A stretch of DNA of 64,000 nt, from positions 29,687 through 93,686 of the IMG/VR virus record IMGVR_UViG_2706795940_000001; one strand, 5' to 3'. The DNA is from a virus (taxonomy: Duplodnaviria > Caudoviricetes). A program made the translations under genes and the position numbers. Numbering within the stretch: the first letter of the stretch is position 1; each line of letters opens with the position of its first letter. The notes under the pieces were generated by a model. The model was not told the origin of the DNA. It made no database searches and worked only from the letters and a program-made list of their open reading frames with translations. Of the stretch, positions 7,002 to 64,000 are shown piece by piece.

Positions 7002-8834
7002 TTGAACGAGGGCAACAAGCATCTCGCCGCGCAGCTCTTCGAGTGGCTAAATGTCACCGGAGACATCGTCGATCTGCTTGGCATCGTCGGAACCATCCAG
7101 GAGTGGGTGGACGCGGTGCTTCAAGCACTCGGCGGGAACTTCTCTGCCCTAAGCGGTCTCGTTGGTGAGTTGACTAGTAATGCACCGCCGGGATGGGAGT
7201 GGATCTCCGACCTCTCGAGTTGGAATCCGATCGGTGACCTGATCACCGGCCTGCAGACGATGCTCAACCAGATCGGCGACATCGTCCGAGGGGTCATCGT
7301 GACCCCGATCAACAACATGGTCTCCAACTTCAAGGACTGGTTCCTCGGCCTCGTCGGATGGCAGGGCAATAGCACGAACAAGCATCAGGAACTGACCAAC
7401 ATGGTCTGGACTGGTGCTACCACCCAGACTCCCGAAGAGGATCGAACCGAGGCACAGGTCCGCGACGCCGTGGCCGCACTCAAGGCCCGCTCGGAGGCCC
7501 TGCGCTCGGAGAACGAGCTGCGATACCGATCGGCCGTTCCTCTCTGGCAGGGGCTCGTTCCTGGCGGCGACGTCACCTGCGACCTTAACACCGTCTCGGT
7601 CCGCGATAACTGGAACATCCCGATCACGGGAACATCAGGGCCGCAGGGGTTCCCGGGGCACGACCACGGACCCGGGTCTTACGTCGCCAACCTCCGACTC
7701 GCGACGAACGCATCGACCACTTCGGGCGTCGGTGCGTCCATGGGGCCCTTCGCTCCATTTCGCGCGCGTTCCGACGTTCCGCGTAACGTTGTTACCTTCC
7801 TGGCGCGAGCCACGGGGTCGGTCACCAGTGGATACGTCAGTCTCTGGAGCTACGACTACGACACCGACAAGTGGCTGTGCGTCGCCCGCAGTGCCGACTT
7901 CATGTCGCAGGTCCCTGGAACTGACTCGTACGGATGGGTCGATGCGCAGCTGCTCGAGGAGTACACACCCTCGGTAGGCGAGCTCATGGCTGTGCGGTGG
8001 TCAACGGCCGGCTCCGGAACACTCCTTCTCGCCTCGTCGCTGTCCGCCGGCACTCAGGACCACCAGTTCCTCATCCCGGCCTACCACAGCGTCCCTTACG
8101 GCACCGCTGCAATGATCGCAGCGCCGACGAGCCCCGGGGTTGGCCAGGAGCTGTCGCTCACCGACCCCAACCAGTGGTGGTCCGGAAAGACCCCGTTCGC
8201 TCAGATCGCACCCGACCTCGGACAGACGGTCCTCCCGCGGCCCCAGTACTGGTTCGACGACTTCAATGCCAGCGACCCCAACGCATACACATTCTCCAAC
8301 AATGGTGCGCGAATCTCCGACGGCCACTTCGAGTTCTGGGGCACGTCTAGTGTTCCAACTGTCCAGTACCTCATCTACCGCGGGCAGATGGCCACGCCGA
8401 ACCTCCGGATCGAAGCCACCGCGAAGGGGCATCACGGTCGCGAGATGTTCATGCGCCTGGGGTGCACATCAAACGGCACATCCGGTCTGAATCTCACCAT
8501 CAATGCAGACGGCGGATCGACCACACAGGTTCTCCTGCAGACCGTTTCGCCCACAGACCCCGGTGCCGTGACGACACGGCACACCATTACCGGCGTGCCG
8601 TTCACCAGCACCGACCGCTGGGCCCTCGAGTTCGAGGACCCCTCGAAGACCTACATCGTCTACCGAAATGGGTCATTCGTGACCTCGTGGGCAGACCCGG
8701 GCAATCTAGCCGTCCGTGGCAAGGGCAAGCGATCCGGTGGTCTTGGCGTGACCAGATCATTCTTCCTCGATTCCGGCGCGTGGGACGACTTCCTGCTCTA
8801 CGACGTCACTTCCAACGAAACCGAGACCGAATAA
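7002..8834 (+). CDS. Minor tail protein
   Basis: 610 aa; helical N-terminus, beta-rich C-terminus; RBS GAGG before TTG. Confidence 0.7.
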   Translation: MNEGNKHLAAQLFEWLNVTGDIVDLLGIVGTIQEWVDAVLQALGGNFSALSGLVGELTSNAPPGWEWISDLSSWNPIGDLITGLQTMLNQIGDIVRGVIVTPINNMVSNFKDWFLGLVGWQGNSTNKHQELTNMVWTGATTQTPEEDRTEAQVRDAVAALKARSEALRSENELRYRSAVPLWQGLVPGGDVTCDLNTVSVRDNWNIPITGTSGPQGFPGHDHGPGSYVANLRLATNASTTSGVGASMGPFAPFRARSDVPRNVVTFLARATGSVTSGYVSLWSYDYDTDKWLCVARSADFMSQVPGTDSYGWVDAQLLEEYTPSVGELMAVRWSTAGSGTLLLASSLSAGTQDHQFLIPAYHSVPYGTAAMIAAPTSPGVGQELSLTDPNQWWSGKTPFAQIAPDLGQTVLPRPQYWFDDFNASDPNAYTFSNNGARISDGHFEFWGTSSVPTVQYLIYRGQMATPNLRIEATAKGHHGREMFMRLGCTSNGTSGLNLTINADGGSTTQVLLQTVSPTDPGAVTTRHTITGVPFTSTDRWALEFEDPSKTYIVYRNGSFVTSWADPGNLAVRGKGKRSGGLGVTRSFFLDSGAWDDFLLYDVTSNETETE

Positions 8835-37368: not shown

Positions 37369-38455
37369 GGGTCCGGTCGATAGAACTCGCCGAGAACGGA
37401 TTCCCCGAGCAGGTCACGGTCGTGATGTCCCGCTCTGAGGCCGAGTGGATCACTCTGGTCCTCGGCAGCCTGACCGGCGAGCAGGAAGAAGCGATCAAAC
37501 CTGGTTACCGGGAGCAAAGCGGCGAGATCTACAACGCCCTGGTCGGCGAACTCTTCAACCGCTTCTGGGAAGACGGGATCAATGACGCGGTGCGGGGGAG
37601 GGATCGCCGGTAATGAGTGACACCCCAGCACCCGCAGAGATCGTGGACAGGGTCCTCGACACCATGACGACCCTCTACGACGCCGACGCGGACCGCGTCA
37701 TCGCTGCTCTGTCTGAGCACTACCACCTACTGCCCCGGGTGGAGTCGCACCCGATGCGCGTTGGGCTGATTGACATGGCACCGGAGGACGAGATGTTCCC
37801 TGGTGACGACCCGGTGCTCACGGTTCGCTTTTCCGCGGGCATTCCACAACCCGGTCGGCTGTTCGGCCTTGACGAGCTGGCCGCGGCACTGATGGCTGCG
37901 CATTCTTCGGGGGTGTCGAATGTCTGACATCCCAAATCCCGAGGCCCAAGCTCGACTCGACCTCGCCGAACTTCAGCGAACGTTCGTCGTCATGGATGCC
38001 GCCAAGGTAATCCTCGACAGTCTGAACCAGATGCAGGACGACAATCATGCGCAGATCAAGCGCGTGTTTCCCGACAGCAACCCGAAGTTCGTCGACTACT
38101 CGGTGGAGTCTTGGACTGCCGCCGCAGCCCTCGACCGGGCCGGGATGCTGAAGGCAGCGGAGTGATCCCTTACGAATACTTCCTCGGTGTCGCAACAGTC
38201 TTCGTTGTTGTTTACATCGGGGTCGGTATCTACGGAACTATCGACATCGTCCGCCACGGACGTCCGTCGAGGGTGTACTTCAGCCCCGACCAGTACAGGC
38301 CCCTGCGGTATCGGGCGTGGGGGTTCTGGCCGCTCACGTTCATCACCCCACTGTTGTGGCCGCTGACACTCCTGGTGGTCGGCCTGGACAGGCAGTGGAC
38401 GAATCGGCAGATCGCCAAGCGAATCAAGAAGCGCAACGCAGGAGGTACAGAATGA
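37365..38455 (+). CDS. Four small genes (37365-37613, 37613-37927, 37920-38165, 38162-38455 membrane)
   Basis: Coupled ORFs. Confidence 0.5.
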
Positions 38456-39219
38456 GCATTTTCAGTCGCAACACCCGCACCGCGGACATCGCACCCACCG
38501 GACGCGGGCCGGTCAAGCTGGTCAAGGAGTCCGGGCCGGCGAACGACCGGTCGGCGATCGAGTCGTCTGGCGCCGGCATCGACCTCGTGAAGCGTTTCGA
38601 CAAGGCTGGTATCAGTCTGTCTAAACGTGGTCTGGACGGTGTACGGGCCGAGGCGGTCATGCTGCTCGACCACTCGGGCTCAATGTCGTACGACTACGAG
38701 AACGGCACGGTGCAGGCCATCGTGGAGCGCGCACTCGGGTTCGCCCTGCAGATCGACGGAGACGGAACCGTCCCGGTCATCCGGTTCGACTCGGGCGTCC
38801 GCAAGGCAATCGACGTGAACCTGAGCAACTACGCCAGCATCACGTCGTCCAAGCTCTACGAGCGCAACAAGATGGGCACGACGAACCTGACCGCTGCGCT
38901 CGAGGAACTGAAGTCGATTGGCCAGCAAGCCACCTCGCCCATCTTCGCGATCATCGTCACCGATGGTGCGCCGAACGACCCGACGTCAGCCGAGCGACTG
39001 GTCCGCGAGCTCGAGTCGCTCCCGGTGTTCCTCAAGTTCCTGTCGATCCAGCCGGTCGCCTGGCTGGACAAGCTCGACGACATGAGCCGGCAGCTGATCG
39101 ACAACGCGGATGCGAAGGCGATCGACGGCACCGAGTCGGACCTGCAGTTCGCCGACAAGATGACTGACGAATGGGACACCTGGATCGCCGCGGCCCAGCA
39201 GAAGGGCATCTTGGCGTGA
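38452..39219 (+). CDS. vWA domain protein (TerF-associated vWA type)
   Basis: MIDAS DHSGSM, T, VTDG; R.IDNA motif; N-terminal VKLVK/IDLVK/ISLSK repeats. Confidence 0.85.
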   Translation: MSIFSRNTRTADIAPTGRGPVKLVKESGPANDRSAIESSGAGIDLVKRFDKAGISLSKRGLDGVRAEAVMLLDHSGSMSYDYENGTVQAIVERALGFALQIDGDGTVPVIRFDSGVRKAIDVNLSNYASITSSKLYERNKMGTTNLTAALEELKSIGQQATSPIFAIIVTDGAPNDPTSAERLVRELESLPVFLKFLSIQPVAWLDKLDDMSRQLIDNADAKAIDGTESDLQFADKMTDEWDTWIAAAQQKGILA

Positions 39220-56400: not shown

Positions 56401-57018
56401 ACCGCCGAGGGGAGGCGCTGCACCTGCCCGTGAGCCTTCGCGCGCTTGGCTTCGTTCTCGACATCCTCGGCGAGCTGCCGCATTCTGTCGGCGACGAACT
56501 GAACCTTCTCGTACACCCGGTCCTCGAGGTGGGCGATGTACTGGTCATCGACGCTGTCACTCATCAGAGTTCCTCCACCCGCACGTCGATGTCGTACTCG
56601 TGGTCGATGGTCGCCGAGTCGAGCATGCTCTCGACGTCCTCGACCAGGCCCGGGTGGCCGCTGGCGATGGCTGCGAAGAGCAGGTTGGCGAGCATCCCCT
56701 CGTCTAGCTGGTCGACGGTGGTTTCGGTCGACTTGTCCAGACGGACCCCGTGTCGCTTGAGCAGCGCCACGACCTTGGCCCGGTCCAGTGCGCGCGCCTG
56801 CACGACCTCGCGCTCAATGATGATCATCTTCATACTTCCTGCTCCTTCACTGTCACGAACACGTCCGCGGCTCCATCTCGGTCGGTGAGTATGAAGTCGA
56901 CGGTGGAAAACGGTGGGGCATCTTCCAATTTCTTCGCGATCTGGCCGACGATCTCGGGAGTCGTCAGCTCGTCGGTGTAGGTCGTGATGTCCACCAGGAT
57001 CTTCTTGATCTTCCTCAT
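53462..57018 (-). CDS. Leftward operon of about 14 small hypothetical genes (e.g. 53462-53788, 53785-53967, 53964-54305, 54302-54445, 54447-54971, 55343-55600, 55773-56153, 56304-56564, 56564-56833, 56830-57018)
   Basis: Tightly coupled minus-strand ORFs with RBSs. Confidence 0.6.
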
Positions 57019-57023
57019 GGGAG

Positions 57024-57140
57024 TCAGCCCTTGGGGTTGGCGGACACGAAGCGCCGGTTGGCATCTCGCGAACCGACGTGGTGCTGGCCGGCGATGCCCT
57101 TGGTGAGGTTGACCTTCTTGGTGAGATTCACGTTCGACAT
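57024..57140 (-). CDS. 38-aa micro-protein MSNVNLTKKVNLTKG...
   Basis: RBS GGAAGGA; first ORF after promoter 57179-57207; absent from the ORF track. Confidence 0.65.
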   Translation of the reverse strand: MSNVNLTKKVNLTKGIAGQHHVGSRDANRRFVSANPKG

Positions 57141-57159
57141 TGGATGTTCCTTCCGTTGG

Positions 57160-57207
57160 CTGTCTAAGTATGCATTAGACAGTAAGGTAATGAATGGTGG
57201 GTGTCAA
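57160..57207 (-). promoter_or_regulatory. Leftward SigA promoter with overlapping palindromic operator
   Basis: TTGACA-17 bp-TACTGT; CTGTCTAA-N7-TTAGACAG at 57160-57182. Confidence 0.8.
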
Positions 57208-57217
57208 GCGGGTTTGA

Positions 57218-58765
57218 TCAGACGCCTTTGGACCAGTAGCGAATGCCGGCCGCACCGTACAGGCGGGCCATCGTGTCGTCGTCGAGCATCTCGGACACTG
57301 CGTACTTGAAGTCGCGATCCTCGTCGTACAGCACGATCGAATGGCGCACGTCCAAGTTGGCCCGCTCGATCAGATCGGCGTTGATGAAGGCGACCATCAT
57401 CTCTCGGTTTAACCCTCGGTGCATGAGGGTCAGGTCGGTGGTATCCAGTTGTGCGACTTTGTGAGTCATGTCAGAAGTCCAATCGTGAAGCGAGCTTGCA
57501 GAATAGGGGCACCTCGAAGGTGTCCTCCTCGATGTAGCCGACGAGCTCCTCGAACTGGGTGAACTCGGTGACGTAGCGCGACGTGATGCGCATGTCCAGC
57601 TTCGACCACGGATCGAATCCGAGGAAGCCGGGTCTGATCTCGATGACGGCGTTCATGTTGTAGTCCTTAGTGATTGGCGGGCAGAACGAAAGGTAGGTCT
57701 GTGTTGACCGCGGACACGATCATGTGGGCGATCTTGCTGTTGACTTGGGCGTACTCGGTCTCGATGATCGCGACGATCTCGGACTGGAGCCCATTCCGGT
57801 CGGTGTCGTACACCCGCTCGGCTGCGTCGGCCGGCCCCCATGCCTCGACGTTCATGGAGGTGCCGTCCGCGCAGATGATGTGGTACTCGTTGAGGGTCAT
57901 CACATTTCCTGATACTTGAAGCGCCGGATCTCGCGTCGGCGCAGGGTCTCTCGTCGCTGGTCTGCCTTGGTTGCTCGTGCCATGTCAGTTGTCTCCTTCG
58001 TTAGTTCCAGTCGATGGTGAAGTTCGTCGGCACTTCAAGCCGGCTGCCGCAGTTGAGGCACAGCAGGTACTCGCCCGACCCCTCTTCCGAGAAGTCGTCG
58101 CTGCCGTTGGATGTGGCCGTGATGGTGTTGGCGTCCGGGTCGATCTCGGTCGACCAGCACCGGCGGTAACCGTCCTCGGTCAGCATCCAGTCGTGCTCGC
58201 ACTTCTTGATGGTGCGCAGCAGGTCGCTCATCGGATCTCCTCTGTCTCGAATGCGCCCAGGTCGACGCGGAACTTCTTCCCGGTCTCGGTGTCAAGCACC
58301 TCGAATACGTTGGCGCCGTCGGGGTCTCCCATGTACGTTCGGCGCAGCACGCCGAGCGCACTGGTCGCGGCGTCAATGGGGCTCCCGGCGTCATCGTTGT
58401 CGATATTCCAGGTGACGACGTAGCTCACGACTCCTCCAGCTTGTAGCCGCCGACCCGGTTGCCGTTCTGGTCCAGGATCGAGAGGGTTTGGCTCCCGACG
58501 CCGTACTCCGCGATGTAGTCAGCGACGCCGTGCAGGATGCGGGCGATCTCTGCTTCGAGGAACCACTCGTCGTTGCCGCCGCCGGTCTGGTCCTTGAACG
58601 CCGCGTTGCTCGTGCGGATGTTGAGCTTGAACTCGCTCATCCGATGTCTCCAATCGTGTAGCCGTTCGCGTTGAGGAGCTCCGCGATCGAGTTGAGGGTG
58701 TCTGCGCTCCAGGCGACCCCGTCCATGAGGTCCTGGATGGCCAGGAGGATCTCGTGGTCGTTCAT
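57218..58765 (-). CDS. Run of about 8 small hypothetical genes (57218-57469, 57471-57656, 57667-57903, 58001-58231, 58228-58428, 58425-58640, 58637-58765 and others)
   Basis: Coupled minus-strand ORFs. Confidence 0.6.
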
Positions 58766-59385
58766 GACTTGCCTTTCAGGTTGTGTGCGGCAACCCAGGT
58801 GATTGCCTGCATCTCGGATGGCTCGATGCCCGCCGATCGTGCAGCGTTGCGGTAGGCATTAGACACGCCGGCGTAAACACCCGCACGGTTGATGTGTTTG
58901 TAGTCCACGCCGGCGATACGCATTGCCCACGAGTCCACAGTCACGTATTCGGTGTGCCCAAGGATGTTGTGCGCGAACGCATGTGTCTTGATGCCCGGTG
59001 TCATCTCGCCCAGTGGATCGGGGGAGTGGAACAGGGCCCGATGTGCCTTGCGCCAGTTCTGATGAGTGATGCCGGCAGTGTTCGGCACCCGCGGCGCGTG
59101 GTCGGCCGGCGCACCAGGTGTTGCCAGTGCCAGTGCGAATGCCACGTTGTCCTCCCACTTCACCTGAGGGGACAGGTGCGCGATGGCAACTGCACTAGCC
59201 TCTAGGTGTCGGTTAGACAGTAGCGCACACTGTTGCGCAACGTCTAGTGCCTCCTTGTACCACAGCTGACCTGCAATGATGTCAGCGTCGGAAGCCTGGT
59301 CGAACACTGCCAGGATGTTCGAGACCATTGCTCGACCACCGATTCCATTGGTCTGCTTGTAGAGCGGTGGACGCTTGCGAGACAT
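58762..59385 (-). CDS. Phage protein, possibly HhH/EndoIII-glycosylase-like
   Basis: WY, LSPQ..W..N, KT.AF..NI, VTVDSW.MR. Confidence 0.45.
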   Translation of the reverse strand: MSRKRPPLYKQTNGIGGRAMVSNILAVFDQASDADIIAGQLWYKEALDVAQQCALLSNRHLEASAVAIAHLSPQVKWEDNVAFALALATPGAPADHAPRVPNTAGITHQNWRKAHRALFHSPDPLGEMTPGIKTHAFAHNILGHTEYVTVDSWAMRIAGVDYKHINRAGVYAGVSNAYRNAARSAGIEPSEMQAITWVAAHNLKGKS

Positions 59386-59413
59386 AGGTGTGACCTTTCA
59401 TGATGCGCCCCTC

Positions 59414-61747
59414 TCAGGCAGCGGTGTTCCAAGTGTTGATGAGCATGTCGGCCGTCTCGATCGGCGAGTACAGGCCGGCGCGGATCGCCTCTCGACGAGC
59501 ATCGGAGTACTCGCCCGACACGACGCTCGATACGAGTGCGATGGGCAGGTCGAGAACGTCCATGATCAGGACGAGCATGTTGTTCTTGGTCACGGGTGAT
59601 CCTTCCACTCGGTCGCATTCGGGTAGTGATCCTCCAGCGTGGAGAACCGCCGGTCGATGTCACGGTTGTTGTAGTCGTCGTGCGGCATGAGGACGTGACG
59701 ATGGTCCGAGTACTTCGCACTCGCGAAGTGCACGCCGACCATGCCCTCAGGCACCGAGTCTTGCCAGCTCCCATATGCGGCAACCACCATGTGCTTGCCG
59801 GCATCCAGGAGCTCCTGCTTGCGGTCGTACTCGGCCTGCGATGACGCCGCGCCATCTCGGCACGACTCACCGTGCACGCCGTTGATACCGCCCTCTTTGC
59901 GGTAGCACGCCTGGCACAGTGCCGGCGGGTAGCAGTAGTGGAGCACGTGACGGTTCGCCGATCGCTGATTGTCGGCGGTCACCTTGTACTTGCACTTGCG
60001 CTTGCGAACGCCTCCCGACTGTCCGCAGCTATCGCAGCACAGCCGGCCTCGCGTGTCGGTGCTGTATCCCATGTCAGGTCTCCTTGAAGAATGCGACGAC
60101 CACAGCGGTCGCCAGTGTTCCAAGCGCGACGAACAGTGTTGTCACGATGATGATTTGGAGTGCGTACAGCCAGGGGTGCATGGCTACCCTTCAGTGCCCG
60201 AAGTGAACGGACACCTGAAGCGGCGCCTTGCAGGTAGGGCAGGCGACGTATGGCGTGCCGTCGTCCTCGGGCTCGATGGTCTCGAAGTCGGGCGTGTCAT
60301 ATGCCCCGCCGTACTCGACCCAGTCGACGCCGGAGCTGTTCGAGTCCCAAGCATGAGTGCCGGCGTACACCGTGTCACCATCCAGTCCGACGCCGATCTC
60401 CTGCCCATAGTTCTCGGTGCATGACAGCGACACGTGGCCCTCGGTGTACAACTCGTAGCGGCCCTCGTAACCGCCGATCGAGAACGCGCGCGGCTTGGTG
60501 TATCCGCCGCGGACGTCACACCCGCCGTGGTACTGAAGCATCACCATGTCGGTGTCGAAACCATCTCGATCGGTGTACGTGAAGACAACGTATTGCAGCG
60601 TCGAGTCCAGCCAGGTTTCACCGTTGTAGGTGTTCACCGTCTGCACATCCGACGCTCGGCCATGCTGTTCGAGCCACTCGACGAACGCCTCAGCCTCAGC
60701 CATCCATGGTCGGTCACGCTCATCTTCCAGCGCGACGAACATCTCGAACATGCGATTGAGCCTCGGCGCGTAGTCCAGGATCTCGTTGAGCCAATGGAAG
60801 GCCGACACCGTGATGTCGACGTAGTTGTAGCTGGCGTCGAGAGTGACTTGAGGCAGGCTGAGGAAGTACTCGCCAGCGTCAACACCCGCCGTCGCGGCCT
60901 GGTTGCGCTCCCAGCTGCGACCGTAGGCACCCCCTGAGTCGAGGAAGTGCCGGCCGGTGTTCTCGGTCCACATCTCAGCGAGGACCTGAGTGGTGATATC
61001 GATGGTGGACATGGGCGTCTCCTTCAGTGTGTGAACTAACCCATCAGTTGTATGTCCAGGTGTGCATTAGACACCTGGACACACGGACTCAGGGGTGAGG
61101 TCACGCGGGCACGTAGACCGCGATGGTTCCATTGAGGGCGTGGTGCGAGTACGCAGCCGGCCTTGCCAGTGCGGCCCGCGCGGTGGATGTGGCCAGAGCC
61201 GGCGGCAGCTTGCCATCCACCCAGACGGCACTGTCTCGCAGCGCAACCCGAGGGAGCTCTCTCGCTACGTCGTCGAGGGTGACGCCGCACACTTGCTCGA
61301 TCTCGGTCAGGCTGTGAACGTAGTGGGTCATTGTCATACCTCTCATCTGTCCAGCTAGTAATTAGACACTAGCACCGGTGAATGGTGGGAGTCAATGCCC
61401 TACCAGGCAAGGATCCCGATGCCCAAGTGTGTGTACTCGGTTTGGGCATTCGACAGCCAGATCGACATGAGGGCGTCGTCGGTTGCTTCCACGGTTGTGG
61501 TGTCGCCGGCGACCCAGATGCCAGTGATCCGGCCCTCATGCATGCTCACTCGCACGACCAGCTTCCACCGGTCATTGGGGTCGAGGCTGCCGTCGTCGTG
61601 CAGGAGCAGGTTACGGGCACCGTCGCCCATCCAGACCACACAGGTCTGGTCGATCTGAGTGAATGAGTTACCGCTCACGCTGAAGTTCTCGACCAGGCTC
61701 CCGTCGTGGTGGACGGCGAACCCACGTGCCGAATAGACGTAGCTCAT
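59414..61747 (-). CDS. Hypothetical genes (59414-59593, 59590-60072, 60191-61012, 61101-61337, 61400-61747)
   Basis: Minus-strand ORFs with RBSs. Confidence 0.6.
61053..61081. repeat. 11-bp inverted repeat containing TTAGACA
   Basis: TGTCCAGGTGT-N7-ACACCTGGACA. Confidence 0.75.
61366..61395 (-). promoter_or_regulatory. Leftward SigA promoter
   Basis: TTGACT-18 bp-TAGTGT with CCCACC after the -35. Confidence 0.75.
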
Positions 61748-61774
61748 TGTGTGCCTTTCAGTTGTGTCGAATGG

Positions 61775-61951
61775 TCAGGCGGACAGCTTGACCAGGCTCA
61801 CGCCCCACTCCGGCCGGCGATGGCGACCGTTGTTCGAGTAGGGGAGTGACCCGCCGAGCTCGCCGTGGATGACGTCGTCCCACTGGTCGAAAATGCTGAC
61901 CAGGTTGGGAGTGAGTTCGAGACGGTTGTTTGTAGCCATGTGACGAGCCAT
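61775..61951 (-). CDS. 58-aa micro-protein, paralog 1 (MARH...GRHRR...VSLVKLSA)
   Basis: RBS GGAAGG; follows promoter 61999-62027; homologous to 62952-63128. Confidence 0.8.
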   Translation of the reverse strand: MARHMATNNRLELTPNLVSIFDQWDDVIHGELGGSLPYSNNGRHRRPEWGVSLVKLSA

Positions 61952-62034
61952 GATAGAGCCTTCCAGGAACTTGGTGGAATTCTTTCGCTCTGGCCTTAAG
62001 TCTACCAGAGTAGTTGGTGGAAGTCAATTCCCTT

Positions 62035-62170
62035 TGACTCGGAGTTTGCAAGCGTTGCAGTGACTCTCGGAGTCGGAAGTAGACTGCCGGCATCGCCGAC
62101 ATGTCGCCACCGTAGTGCGTTGGTACGGAATCGAACCGCGTCTACTTAGAGAGTAGACACCATGCAACGC
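62035..62170 (-). ncRNA. Structured RNA X (T-loop module plus module B)
   Basis: GCGG-TTCGATT-CCGT T-arm within a closed multi-stem; module B covaries with its copy at 62781-62856. Confidence 0.6.
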
Positions 62171-62177
62171 GTCCCTG

Positions 62178-62711
62178 TCAAGCGTTGACAGAGGTACCCA
62201 ATTTCATGGCTGCCAACACAACCTCATTCTGGACAGCCTTGGGCACGTTGGTACTCATCCACCGCTGCCAGTCGGCAGGGTCACGATTGACCAATTGGGC
62301 AGCAAACCCATTGACCTGCCGCTCACGGTTCGCCACCGCGCGCCCCTTGTCGACGGTGGCAGTGTTGACCTTGACCACCTTGGGCTTGGCCGGCCGCGAT
62401 TTGGGCAGACTGGTCCCACTGGACCGGACCTTGCGCCGGCGGATCTCACCCGTGTCGGCGTCGGTGGTCAGACCCATGCTGGACAGGTCACGACGCCGCA
62501 CATTGAACCCACCGGGCGTCTGGACCACGTTGCCCTGGTCATAGAGGTACCCGCGTTCCCTGTCGGTCAGATTCGACCATGGTGCCGCACCCTCACGATA
62601 CTGCTGACGTGAGGTGCGAACCGAGTTTCGTGCCGTGACCCGCGGGTCCGCGGGCCCACTCGGTCCCCAAAAGTCGCCATGCGGCAGGGGAGCTTTCTCA
62701 AACCTGTCCAT
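62178..62711 (-). CDS. Hypothetical basic protein, 177 aa
   Basis: RBS GAAAGG; follows promoter 62745-62773. Confidence 0.65.
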   Translation of the reverse strand: MDRFEKAPLPHGDFWGPSGPADPRVTARNSVRTSRQQYREGAAPWSNLTDRERGYLYDQGNVVQTPGGFNVRRRDLSSMGLTTDADTGEIRRRKVRSSGTSLPKSRPAKPKVVKVNTATVDKGRAVANRERQVNGFAAQLVNRDPADWQRWMSTNVPKAVQNEVVLAAMKLGTSVNA

Positions 62712-62780
62712 CGGATCGAACCTTTCATTTCGCCGTTGCCATTAAGTCTACCAGAGTAATCGGTGGAAGTCAAACCTTGG

Positions 62781-62920
62781 TGACTCGGAGTTTGCACGCG
62801 TGGCAGTGACTCTCGGAATCTAGGTTCGACTGTGAGCACTGCCCACAGGTCGCCACAATTCTGGTTCGCGCAATACTCCCATTGAAGGGTAGGGCCCGAA
62901 TGTCCCGGTATTGCCTGGTA
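62781..62920 (-). ncRNA. Structured RNA Y (module A plus module B)
   Basis: Own promoter, no credible ORF, two covarying modules. Confidence 0.65.
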
Positions 62921-62951
62921 GTGCAAGCCTACCAAAGGTAGGTGGTGGAAG

Positions 62952-63128
62952 TCAAGCCGTGAGCTTGACCAGGCTCACCCAACCCTGCCGACGGTGGCGC
63001 CCATTGTCGGAGTAGGGCAGATCACCGACTGGAGTGCCATCCAATCGGACGCCATCCCATGCCCGGGCGATACGTCGCAGATTGGGAGTGTCATCATCGA
63101 TCGGAGTGAGGATGCAGTGACGCGCCAT
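62952..63128 (-). CDS. 58-aa micro-protein, paralog 2 (MARH...GRHRR...VSLVKLTA)
   Basis: RBS GAAAGG; stop overlaps the next -35; homologous to 61775-61951. Confidence 0.8.
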   Translation of the reverse strand: MARHCILTPIDDDTPNLRRIARAWDGVRLDGTPVGDLPYSDNGRHRRQGWVSLVKLTA

Positions 63129-63166
63129 TGTTCTAGCCTTTCAATCGGTTCGTTTTTCAGAGAGTG

Positions 63167-63210
63167 GCAACACTCCGATTGAACGGTAGGGCCCAATGTC
63201 CCGGTATTGC
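63167..63210 (-). ncRNA. Module A copy 2 in a 5' leader
   Basis: GCAATAC/GTGTTGC closing stem, CCG-TTCAAT-CGG hairpin. Confidence 0.55.
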
Positions 63211-63247
63211 CTGGTAGGTAAACCCTACCAAAGGTAGGTGGTGGAAG

Positions 63248-63493
63248 TCAAGCGCTAAACGCGCGTCGGTCATCTTCCAAGTCTGCGCACGTATCACAGA
63301 ACGCCCTGCACTTGGGCGCACTGTCATGCACGTAGCAGATACGGGCAGGATCGTATGGGCGCACAATTGTCCCATTGGATCGGGCATTGAATGAGATTTG
63401 TGCATCCAATGTCATCCACAGGTCACTGCCCATGCCTTGGGTAGTGACGTCACCCGTTGCCATGTCGATTAGCATGACGCGTTCGGTTTGCAT
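63248..63493 (-). CDS. Hypothetical protein, 81 aa, Cys-rich C-terminus
   Basis: RBS GAAAGG; follows promoter 63522-63550; stop overlaps the next -35. Confidence 0.65.
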   Translation of the reverse strand: MQTERVMLIDMATGDVTTQGMGSDLWMTLDAQISFNARSNGTIVRPYDPARICYVHDSAPKCRAFCDTCADLEDDRRAFSA

Positions 63494-63746
63494 CGTGGGC
63501 CCTTTCGTCGGTGTCCCTGTGACCCTACCAAGGTAATCGGTGGGAGTCAACCCGTGGGTTGGGTGGGAGTCGGTGGGTGGCATGACTCCGACGGTACCAA
63601 GGTGGGCGGTGGGAGTCAACCCGTGCGCCGCGCCCGCTGTCGTCGAAGTCATGCCCGTAGGCTACCAGGCGTCGGCCGGCTTAGGGAAGCCTAACCCGTG
63701 ACAACGTTGGTTGGCACGGTTCGGGCAGTGTCGCCGGGCGCGCGGC

Positions 63747-63838
63747 CGCGCCCGCCCACGCGCGCCCGCCCACGCGCGCCCGCCCACGCGCGCCCGCCCA
63801 CGCGCGCCCGCCCACGCGCGCCCGCCCACGCGCGCCCG
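63747..63838. repeat. 14-bp tandem repeat CGCGCCCGCCCACG x6.5
   Basis: Read directly. Confidence 0.95.
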
Positions 63839-63846
63839 GGCAGCCG

Positions 63847-63963
63847 ACCGAACGCTCGCTCGGTCCCAACCGAACGCTCGCTCGGTGAACCGCCGTTAGC
63901 CTACGCGAAACCGCTGGTCAAGGCCCCGACCGAGCGGTCGTTCGGTGCAAAACCGCAGGTCAA
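63847..63963. repeat. Short direct and inverted repeats near the probable genome end
   Basis: ACCGAACGCTCGCTCGGT at 63847 and 63869, inverted variant at 63929; AAACCGCWGGTCAA at 63908 and 63950. Confidence 0.8.
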
Positions 63964-64000
63964 CCCCCCCGCCGGCCCCCGGCGCCGGCGCGCGACGCTC

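Follow-up and report, generated by a model that had tools for sequence, protein, structure and literature searches.

The closest described counterparts of the short phage proteins reported here are TerD-family proteins (PF02342; structures 3IBZ and 2KXT/2KXV), in which a five-residue unit is repeated at the very start of the protein, and TerF-type vWA proteins (PF10138), in which several [VI]-x-L-x-K units stand ahead of the domain. In the vWA proteins the unit recurs in a family-wide N-terminal extension and is conserved in bacterial and phage members. When a TerD gene and a vWA gene are adjacent both proteins carry the same unit variants: MTVNLVKGG or MAINLSKGG opens the TerD products, and TVNLIKD, AINLSKV or AVNLTKV is found in the vWA proteins paired with them. 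The literature searched on the Ter system offers comparative-genomic proposals and not a mechanism (PMC7824862; PMC8123226). In the literature searched, the role and assembly of TerD, of the TerF-type vWA protein and of their partners are largely unknown, and no description was found of the shared unit, of its likeness to TerD, or of anti-Ter phage proteins. PADLOC-DB v2.0.0 (2023) has no model matching TerD or the phage vWA protein.

The window, which is the whole 64,000-nucleotide stretch of phage DNA that was analysed, carries three very short ORFs with such a unit and also a gene for a TerF-type vWA protein. The sequence-only reading had placed the three ORFs correctly but did not mention their strand, which is minus for all three. 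The features are as follows.

57024 to 57140, minus strand: gene for the 38-aa micro-protein (PHROG 13323), product MSNVNLTKKVNLTKG...NPKG
57141 to 57207, minus strand: promoter-like repeat and leader of the 38-aa gene, read from the sequence
61775 to 61951, minus strand: gene for the 58-aa micro-protein, copy 1 (PHROG 9377)
61952 to 62027, minus strand: promoter-like site of copy 1, TTGACT-17-TAGACT with TG (62027-61999)
62952 to 63128, minus strand: gene for the 58-aa micro-protein, copy 2, with C-terminal VSLVK-LTA
63129 to 63251, minus strand: promoter-like repeat of copy 2, TTGACT (63251-63246)-18-TAGGGT (63227-63222), families D2, D3 and D6
38452 to 39219, plus strand: TerF-type vWA protein (PF10138, E 8e-34, residues 66-254)

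As had been claimed, each of the three is the first ORF behind a TTGAC-type promoter-like repeat and has a GGAAGG-like ribosome binding site (RBS), both read from the sequence. Ahead of the 38-aa gene the promoter-like repeat consists of a -35 TTGACA (57207-57202), a 17-nt spacer and a -10 TACTGT (57184-57179), the leader holds the palindrome CTGTCTAA-N7-TTAGACAG at 57182-57160, and the RBS, GGAAGGAA, is at 57154-57147. The -35/CCCACC repeat (family D3) occurs eight times within 56.5-64 kb and is kept upstream of the 38-aa orthologs. Copy 1 of the 58-aa gene has the RBS GGAAGG at 61964-61959. In copy 2, TGG is present with the promoter-like repeat, a leader of about 85 nt follows and then comes the RBS GAAAGG (63142-63137); the next promoter repeat has its -35 TTGACT at 62955-62950, and the TGA stop of this copy (62954-62952) is contained in it. 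An Rfam scan of 56.5-64 kb gave nothing relevant. Because the three ORFs sit behind promoter repeats in the right arm, their arrangement suggests early expression.

The three ORFs are full-length members of phage protein families for which no function is given (PHROG 13323, 16967 and 9377), and so the three proteins are already catalogued and annotated as hypothetical. The 38-aa ORF matches PHROG 13323 over positions 1-38 of 38 (E 4.2e-30) and the 58-aa ORFs match PHROG 9377 over positions 1-58 of 58 (E 4.6e-39 and 1.4e-33). The 38-aa ORF and the first of the 58-aa ORFs have annotated homologs, which come from Abscondus, Culver, WilliamBoone, OneUp, BrutonGaster, Monty and Orchid-type phages. 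The 38-aa ORF is 97% identical to Abscondus gp165, Culver gp167 and WilliamBoone gp169, has about 63% identity with OneUp gp152 and BrutonGaster gp147, and has its N-terminus in common with Monty gp97. The two 58-aa paralogs are 56% identical to each other, and in Abscondus and Culver, which are close relatives, no counterpart of copy 2 is annotated. When a profile of the two paralogs was run against 1.84 billion proteins it gave six real matches and two repeat artefacts, and the six were the window's own two copies or were identical to OneUp/BrutonGaster/RobinSparkles/Gibbles-type proteins. The 58-aa protein as a query returned only its own cluster, a peptide-pattern scan of IMG/VR for this protein gave zero relatives, and a search of the ESM Atlas gave no usable lead. 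Both families are found almost exclusively in Gordonia phages, the exception being one Rhodococcus-phage-like contig, and same-length orthologs are present across three to four phage genera. The dN/dS of the micro-protein genes ranges from 0.03 to 0.67; copy 1 and Abscondus gp179 differ by 9 synonymous and 1 non-synonymous changes (dN/dS 0.03), and copy 2 compared with copy 1 gives 0.31. The same-length orthologs, the PHROG matches and the substitution patterns together mark the three ORFs as genuine micro-protein genes of two Gordonia-phage families that evolve under purifying selection.

The 38-aa protein has two units, VNLTK-K-VNLTK, at residues 4-14 followed by a basic tail (...GSRDANRRFVSANPKG), and copy 1 of the 58-aa protein has a core (...LPYSNNGRHRRPEWG) followed by the C-terminal unit VSLVK-LSA. 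The translations agree with the earlier statement that the 58-aa paralogs end VSLVKLSA (copy 1) and VSLVKLTA (copy 2). In its general form the unit is [VI]-[NSD]-[LY]-x-K and it is present in 1-4 copies at a protein end, with a period of 6 when it is repeated. The strict form, V[SN]LxK, has six six-frame matches in the 93,686-bp genome compared to 1.5 expected from composition, and four of these six fall within the 154 residues of the three micro-proteins (P about 7e-12, for a motif that was defined post hoc). A like concentration of V[SN]LxK is seen in OneUp, BrutonGaster and Monty. The unit is doubled as VSLVK-R-VSLVK (period 6) in OneUp gp168 and BrutonGaster gp171, it is N-terminal (MATKYQVNLVKR) in Orchid, RobinSparkles and Gibbles (Orchidvirus), and four units are packed into 31-36 aa in Monty-like phages (Monty gp97 and the proteins at loci L139, L183 and L129). 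It stands at the N-terminus in the 38-aa family and the Orchid-type proteins, and at the C-terminus in the 58-aa family and at loci L070 and L073.

The codons of the unit vary while its residues are fixed (Ser is AGC versus TCG/TCC and Val is GTG, GTC, GTT or GTA), and the flanks diverge among orthologs while the unit is kept, under protein-level selection. A DNA-level cause of VSLVK, such as a hairpin or an overlap with a promoter, was rejected because the codons differ between relatives. The supposition that the peptides have the motif as their conserved core is thus borne out among the actinophage homologs compared, in which it is kept, doubled and relocated. The unit shows two marks of a short linear motif (SLiM), namely, conservation with diverging flanks and portability between contexts, and on these comparisons the peptides have a real and portable unit, probably a short linear motif, as their functional core. 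AF2 models residues 44-58 of the 58-aa protein with a pLDDT below 50, and this low confidence at the motif tail fits an unfolded tail, in a model that is poor overall (mean 49.8, 6-row alignment).

Pattern matches in IMG/VR were mostly low-GC tandem repeats. One match in a P22-like phage of Gammaproteobacteria (L072) and another internal to a 545-aa ORF (L079) were taken as chance. A RiPP or graspetide precursor was considered and rejected, because in ten neighbouring proteins only DUF7178 and a phage zinc-binding domain were recognised, and no modifying enzyme. Among clamp-binding, ssrA-like, pentapeptide-repeat, encapsulin cargo and FHA-ligand motifs, none is known to fit all the family members.

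The unit in the phage peptides is the same as the one that opens actinobacterial TerD proteins. The Gordonia TerD N-terminus is MGVSLSKGGNVSLTK and other actinobacterial TerDs start MTVNLVKGGKVDLTK, while the phage peptides start MTVNLIK... and MSNVNLTKKVNLTK; in the 38-aa peptides, as in TerD, the repeated unit is at the very start of the protein. A loose doubled-unit DNA pattern had eight matches in two Nocardia genomes, all eight at the N-termini of TerD-family proteins, and zero matches in five TerD-negative genomes, and this justifies the term TerD-like, which the sequence-only reading had used, for the unit. TerD is present in several Gordonia species and in 42 of 151 sampled Mycobacteriales genomes, a tally that includes the unpublished genome G150. 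Unlike TerD, the phage peptides are without the TerD domain of about 190 aa. Pfam at E up to 1 gave no match for any of the three peptides, which places them outside the TerD domain (about 187 positions), and the 38-aa protein was rejected as a truncated TerD remnant because hhalign of the 38-aa family against the TerD alignment aligned only 6 columns (10.7% probability). The spacing of the units is 6 with a one-residue linker in the phage peptides whereas it is 8 with a GGN-type turn in TerD, and therefore the phage peptides cannot copy the TerD hairpin. In addition, the unit is N-terminal in TerD but C-terminal in the phage 58-aa family. The unit of TerD is presumably part of the folded domain and for this reason may have no docking role whatever.

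The micro-proteins look like free-standing docking peptides. The explanation that we favour, tentatively and at a little under an even chance, is that they are docking-motif micro-proteins, probably with a host partner that recognises the TerD/TerF N-terminus, and that the vWA protein of the phage is not needed. In this mechanism the unit would be an exposed docking strand that binds by beta-strand addition, and its partner would be shared by the peptide families and would most probably be host-encoded. This partner would normally recognise the N-terminal peptide of TerD or TerF, and the phage peptides would interfere with a Ter-type stress/exclusion assembly soon after infection, by competition or by mis-assembly, an action for which the phage's own vWA protein would be unnecessary. 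A more specific proposal, which we regard as unlikely, is that the peptides are a free form of an N-terminal 'address' peptide by which TerD and TerF-vWA would dock with each other or on a common receptor, and that their early release by Gordonia phages would outcompete this docking and so disable a Ter-type stress or exclusion response. Ter mimicry by the peptides is plausible but unproven. Of the mimic reading that was put forward from the letters of the DNA, the conserved core and the TerD unit have stood, whereas the partnership with the phage vWA protein and the equivalence of the vWA motifs have not.

Among the other explanations the one that survives best, although we consider it somewhat unlikely, is that the motif, although real and portable, is unrelated to Ter. 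It would then be a generic basic beta-strand element that brings small proteins to the inner membrane face, to nucleic acid or to some other abundant surface, or that serves in self-association, and TerD and the vWA protein would carry it for ordinary structural reasons. The peptides are indeed very basic, but the unit is not clearly amphipathic. The difference in spacing from TerD and the absence of any wider similarity by hhalign fit this explanation, as does the predicted packing of two of the three vWA units, as helix, on the domain. In the two genomes examined, however, the loose doubled pattern is otherwise limited to TerD N-termini. In 151 bacterial genomes, the only period-6 copies found come just after a membrane anchor and GRRP in an LPXTG protein, although both genomes with this LPXTG tail are TerD-positive. 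It is in the cytoplasmic tail of this surface protein that the copies lie, and as an observation in its own right they point to a more general near-membrane role of the unit.

It is decidedly improbable that a five-residue pattern resembles TerD by coincidence, each family having a separate function and mosaic recombination having carried the unit from one small phage gene to another. The pattern is short and its definition came only once it had been seen, but the unit has been retained, duplicated and relocated with synonymous change, and the doubled pattern shows high specificity in scans of bacterial genomes. PWRHGVSLVK in the L183 protein resembles PEWGVSLVK of the 58-aa family, which suggests shared descent of a module rather than independent selection, and the near confinement of the families to Gordonia phages, with one Rhodococcus-phage-like contig, is also in favour of coincidence. 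Against it, some of the proteins consist of little beyond four units.

The phage vWA protein is a member of PF10138 (118 bits against a cut-off of 29.4), D73, S75 and S77 of its DxSxS metal-site motif are invariant in 24 homologs, and its AF2 model has a pLDDT of 90. The translation confirms that its N-terminal extension carries VKLVK (21-25), IDLVK (43-47) and ISLSK (54-58). These had been equated with the peptide motif, and the equation is not supported for two of the three, because IDLVK and ISLSK are confidently predicted by AF2 to be helix packed on the domain. Moreover, the vWA units are attached to a folded domain and are irregularly spaced, whereas the phage peptides are free-standing with a period of 6. 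The vWA protein is present in only 3 of 15 peptide-bearing phage genomes, namely, this genome, Abscondus and Culver, and is absent from WilliamBoone, OneUp, BrutonGaster, Monty, Orchid, RobinSparkles, Gibbles and five IMG/VR phages, so the partnership that had been proposed between it and the peptides is not supported. It is very improbable that the peptides and the phage vWA protein have a Ter complex as their joint target. The protein is TerF-type and its extension with related units is conserved family-wide, but the 12 peptide-bearing phages that lack it already weaken this explanation by their distribution, and the vWA gene is about 18 kb off, on the opposite strand and among replication genes. 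From its distribution, the phage vWA protein is context only and not a required partner of the peptides. Finally, that the ORFs are not functional proteins but leader ORFs, upstream ORFs or frames that arose by chance in non-coding RNAs made from the promoters, is scarcely credible, for although they are very short and come first after promoters, and copy 2 is unannotated in the closest relatives, their dN/dS is well below 1, their length is kept across genera, the amino acid stays fixed through a two-step Ser codon switch and there is an RBS at every copy.

A phage protein that is reduced to almost only the shared N-terminal unit is a minimal handle on Ter. If the docking peptides bind a host factor through the unit, then that factor would reveal the purpose of the TerD/TerF N-terminus, and the peptides would serve as a simple tool and would represent a novel type of phage counter-measure. 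If they are 'address' peptides, they would be the first anti-Ter counter-defence and the short N-terminal unit would be an assembly code of the poorly understood Ter system. Even if the target is not Ter, a unit that is duplicated, moved and concatenated in proteins of 31-68 aa makes these clear motif-based phage micro-proteins, and the genes for such proteins are below the usual gene-calling cut-offs.

Viral proteins are known to mimic SLiMs, and phages are known to make small early inhibitors of host proteins. The phage peptides are like them in having a short conserved motif, an apparently unfolded tail, portability and presumed early genes, and they differ from them in that their motif is repeated in arrays.

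The 64-kb window is the right part of a linear phage record of 93,686 bp, and its 56.5-63.5 kb interval shares 91-93% identity with the Gordonia phages Abscondus and Culver and, over part of its length, with WilliamBoone (genus Smoothievirus); OneUp and BrutonGaster are remoter relatives. The three micro-protein ORFs picked out by the sequence-only reading are indeed present here, all on the minus strand, in a right arm that is a series of small leftward genes:

57024-57140, minus strand: 38-aa gene, product MSNVNLTKKVNLTKGIAGQHHVGSRDANRRFVSANPKG
61775-61951, minus strand: 58-aa gene, copy 1
62952-63128, minus strand: 58-aa gene, copy 2, 56% identical to copy 1
58001-58231, minus strand: gene with phage zinc-binding domain PF24230 (E 6e-36)
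58762-59385, minus strand: DUF7178 gene (E 1e-62)

The remaining eight right-arm neighbours tested had no Pfam match. The 58-aa paralogs have in common MARH, TPNL, W-D-V, LPYS-NGRHRR and the terminal VSLVKL[ST]A. Same-length orthologs of the micro-proteins are annotated in relatives, and the micro-proteins match PHROG 13323 and 9377 over their full length. Between the 61775 copy and Abscondus gp179 there are 9 synonymous changes and a single non-synonymous one, and dN/dS in remoter pairs is about 0.3 for the 58-aa family and 0.5-0.65 for the 38-aa family. Copy 2 had no counterpart in Abscondus or Culver, and it evolves in a protein-like manner when compared with copy 1 and with WilliamBoone gp193. 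The three ORFs are real genes, and it is hardly credible that they are not translated.

Each ORF is, as had been noticed, the first after a copy of a promoter-like repeat and has an RBS, GGAAGG or GAAAGG, 6-8 nt upstream of its ATG. The repeat, TTGAC[TA]-CCCACC/TCCACC followed by TAnnnT, occurs in 8 copies in 7.5 kb (minus strand, within 56500-64000; -35 starts at 57207, 61395, 62027, 62773, 62955, 63251, 63550 and 63619), and a GTCTAATGC-type palindrome follows several of them (repeat families D3, D8 and D9). Because its spacer is conserved, the repeat suggests a possible operator or dedicated factor. A simple consensus scan found two of the promoters, both TG-extended, and at the 38-aa gene a palindrome, CTGTCTAA-N7-TTAGACAG, covers the -10 region. 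We infer that these promoters are strong or early. At 62950-62955 the -35 TTGACT of the next repeat contains the TGA stop of ORF 62952-63128, and therefore the end of the gene and the promoter overlap. A 134-aa ORF (63248-63652, minus strand), equal in length to Culver gp190 and at the corresponding position, has two promoter repeats in its first 53 codons, translated as ...GLTPT... twice. A start at ATG 63493, after GAAAGGG, looks more likely than the long form, so the form annotated in the relatives may be over-extended.

The proposal that the motif is the conserved core of these proteins held in both families. The unit is the five-residue [VI]-[NSD]-[LY]-x-K, strictly V[SN]LxK, and in homologs it is kept, doubled or relocated. 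Invariant positions of the 38-aa family are M1, V4, N5, L6, K8, L12, K14, G23, S24, K37 and G38; Monty gp97 is nearly identical over the first 14 residues, has a shorter, mostly different tail, and carries four units under the relaxed definition [VI]-[SNDT]-[LY]-x-K. The 58-aa family has one unit in Smoothievirus and two in OneUp gp168 and BrutonGaster gp171 (VVSLVKRVSLVK). Orchid gp114 and RobinSparkles gp124 lack the C-terminal unit, which Gibbles gp117 has only in degenerate form (YSLVN); in all three of these Orchidvirus homologs the unit is N-terminal instead (MATKYQVNLVKR). Back-to-back doubled units in phage peptides are spaced 6 residues start to start without exception, the single linker residue being K, R, P or A. 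Codons vary under the fixed residues (Ser AGC vs TCG/TCC; Val GTG/GTC/GTT/GTA; Leu CTG/CTC/CTT/CTA), so a DNA-level cause of the conservation was ruled out.

Searching IMG/VR with the doubled unit at period 6 brought in more high-GC phage proteins:

1117-1212, minus strand, ~76 kb IMG/VR contig L139: 31 aa, MRVNLTKPVNLTKRTKRAGVSLIKPTISYVK, four units
8439-8549, minus strand, ~76 kb IMG/VR contig L183: 36 aa, four units
L129: 34 aa, four units
L070: 34 aa, ...KRRPVTRYRVNLVKRVSLVKFLGARG
7454-7846, Rhodococcus-phage-like contig L073: 130 aa, ends ...VTLAKRVNLAKR...

The L139 and L183 proteins are the most reduced members, nearly all of their sequence being VNLTK, VNLTK, VSL[IV]K and ISY[VT]K. PWRHGVSLVK of the L183 protein is a link to PEWGVSLVK of the 58-aa family. 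Apiary gp86 of a Rhodococcus phage (467-907 of its locus, L185), a homolog of the L073 protein, has AVSLRK. These two proteins (130-146 aa) have ...NGHGRHS..W..., like the 58-aa core NGRHRRP.W, with 1-2 units further downstream; by this resemblance they may be distant homologs of the 58-aa family. In six frames of the 93.7-kb genome the strict form occurs 6 times against 1.5 expected, 4 of the 6 lying within the three micro-protein ORFs. The micro-proteins hold 3 of 6 occurrences in OneUp and 3 of 5 in BrutonGaster, and both of Monty's are in gp97. The unit is thus shown to be portable and subject to selection at the protein level; it sits at protein ends and reaches four copies in tiny, very basic proteins.

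The description of the peptides as TerD-like stands in so far as the unit is shared with TerD N-termini; beyond that, no TerD domain was found in the three peptides, and the spacing is 6 rather than 8. Gordonia TerD begins MGVSLSKGGNVSL[TS]K, and Nocardia TerDs are alike or have MSVTLAKGGNVSLSK. Of 21 vWA loci, only 3, on the actinobacterial contigs L013, L015 and L016, have TerD as the immediate upstream neighbour of the PF10138 vWA gene, 35-110 nt away. In these three, TerD starts MAINLSKGGKV[DN]L[ST]K or MTVNLVKGGKVDLTK and its vWA partner has RTVNLIKD...AINLSKV or HTVNLHKD...AVNLTKV, so that the two members of a pair carry matching variants, either AINLSK or TVNL[VH]K. These forms are those of the phages: MTVNLIK (OneUp, BrutonGaster), VNLTK (this genome) and VNLVK (Orchid). 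A loose DNA pattern of two units with 1-3 residues between them gave 8 matches in two Nocardia genomes (13 Mb), all 8 at TerD-family N-termini, and none in five TerD-negative genomes; in five phage genomes it matched micro-proteins only. Since the bacterial matches are so confined, the unit with its repetition is, by this pattern search, a specific TerD-family signature in the bacteria examined.

Because TerD and TerF-type vWA N-termini bear the peptide unit, our best single guess, a tentative one, is that the peptides would compete for whatever reads this N-terminal peptide in a host Ter-type assembly. The unit would then be a docking strand for a single partner common to the peptides; its segment in the 58-aa protein had no confident AF2 fold, which is weak evidence. 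TerD is reported from Gordonia genomes (PMC9861168). The protein collection names TerD from G. amicalis, G. amarae, G. aichiensis and other Gordonia, and only 42 of 151 sampled Mycobacteriales genomes have it. This set, like that of the scan below, includes the unpublished genome G150, which is not the sole basis of any claim. PADLOC had no model matching TerD or the phage vWA.

A role independent of Ter, at the membrane or generic, is possible but rather unlikely. The period-6 pattern was found at just 2 places in the 151 genomes (control matches, 2), at nucleotides 1501-1533 of each of two loci (G028:C2:1539313-1542345 and G061:C63:42099-45131), both in the cytoplasmic tail of an S/T-rich LPXTG surface protein in the order ...LPVTG-membrane segment-GRRP...VSLIKPVSLVKRS.KK; both genomes are TerD-positive. 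The likeness to TerD has limits: profile-profile alignment covered just residues 3-8 against TerD 2-7, and TerD units are 8 apart with linkers GGN, DRP or GQR, whereas peptide units are 6 apart. That the resemblance is coincidental, with the unit spread by mosaic recombination, is improbable.

Partnership with the phage vWA protein, which had also been suggested, is very improbable. The gene (38452-39219, plus strand) is a clear PF10138 member with an N-terminal extension (...ARTVxLVKD...VDLAKRFDKAGISLSKRGL...; K47, G53, L56 and K58 invariant) that is conserved in 24 bacterial and phage homologs and is therefore a family feature, not one peculiar to this phage. In its AF2 model (pLDDT 90) residues 43-58, with IDLVK and ISLSK, are helical, and only VKLVK (21-25) is extended. 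The protein occurs in this genome, Abscondus and Culver and is absent from peptide-bearing WilliamBoone, OneUp, BrutonGaster, Monty, Orchid, RobinSparkles, Gibbles and five complete IMG/VR phages; therefore the peptides cannot depend on it. As TerD is not encoded in any of six phage records searched (this genome and the five IMG/VR phages) and vWA is often absent, any Ter-type target would be the host's.

The micro-proteins are already known as annotated hypothetical proteins grouped in PHROGs; in the literature searched, neither the shared unit nor the micro-proteins made by stringing it together had been described, nor had anyone equated it with the signature at TerD N-termini. The value of the finding hinges on identifying the partner. 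Ter clusters have been discussed as phage-exclusion and stress systems, and some jumbo phages carry TerD and TerF (PMC7824862); the micro-proteins belong with motif-based small viral proteins.
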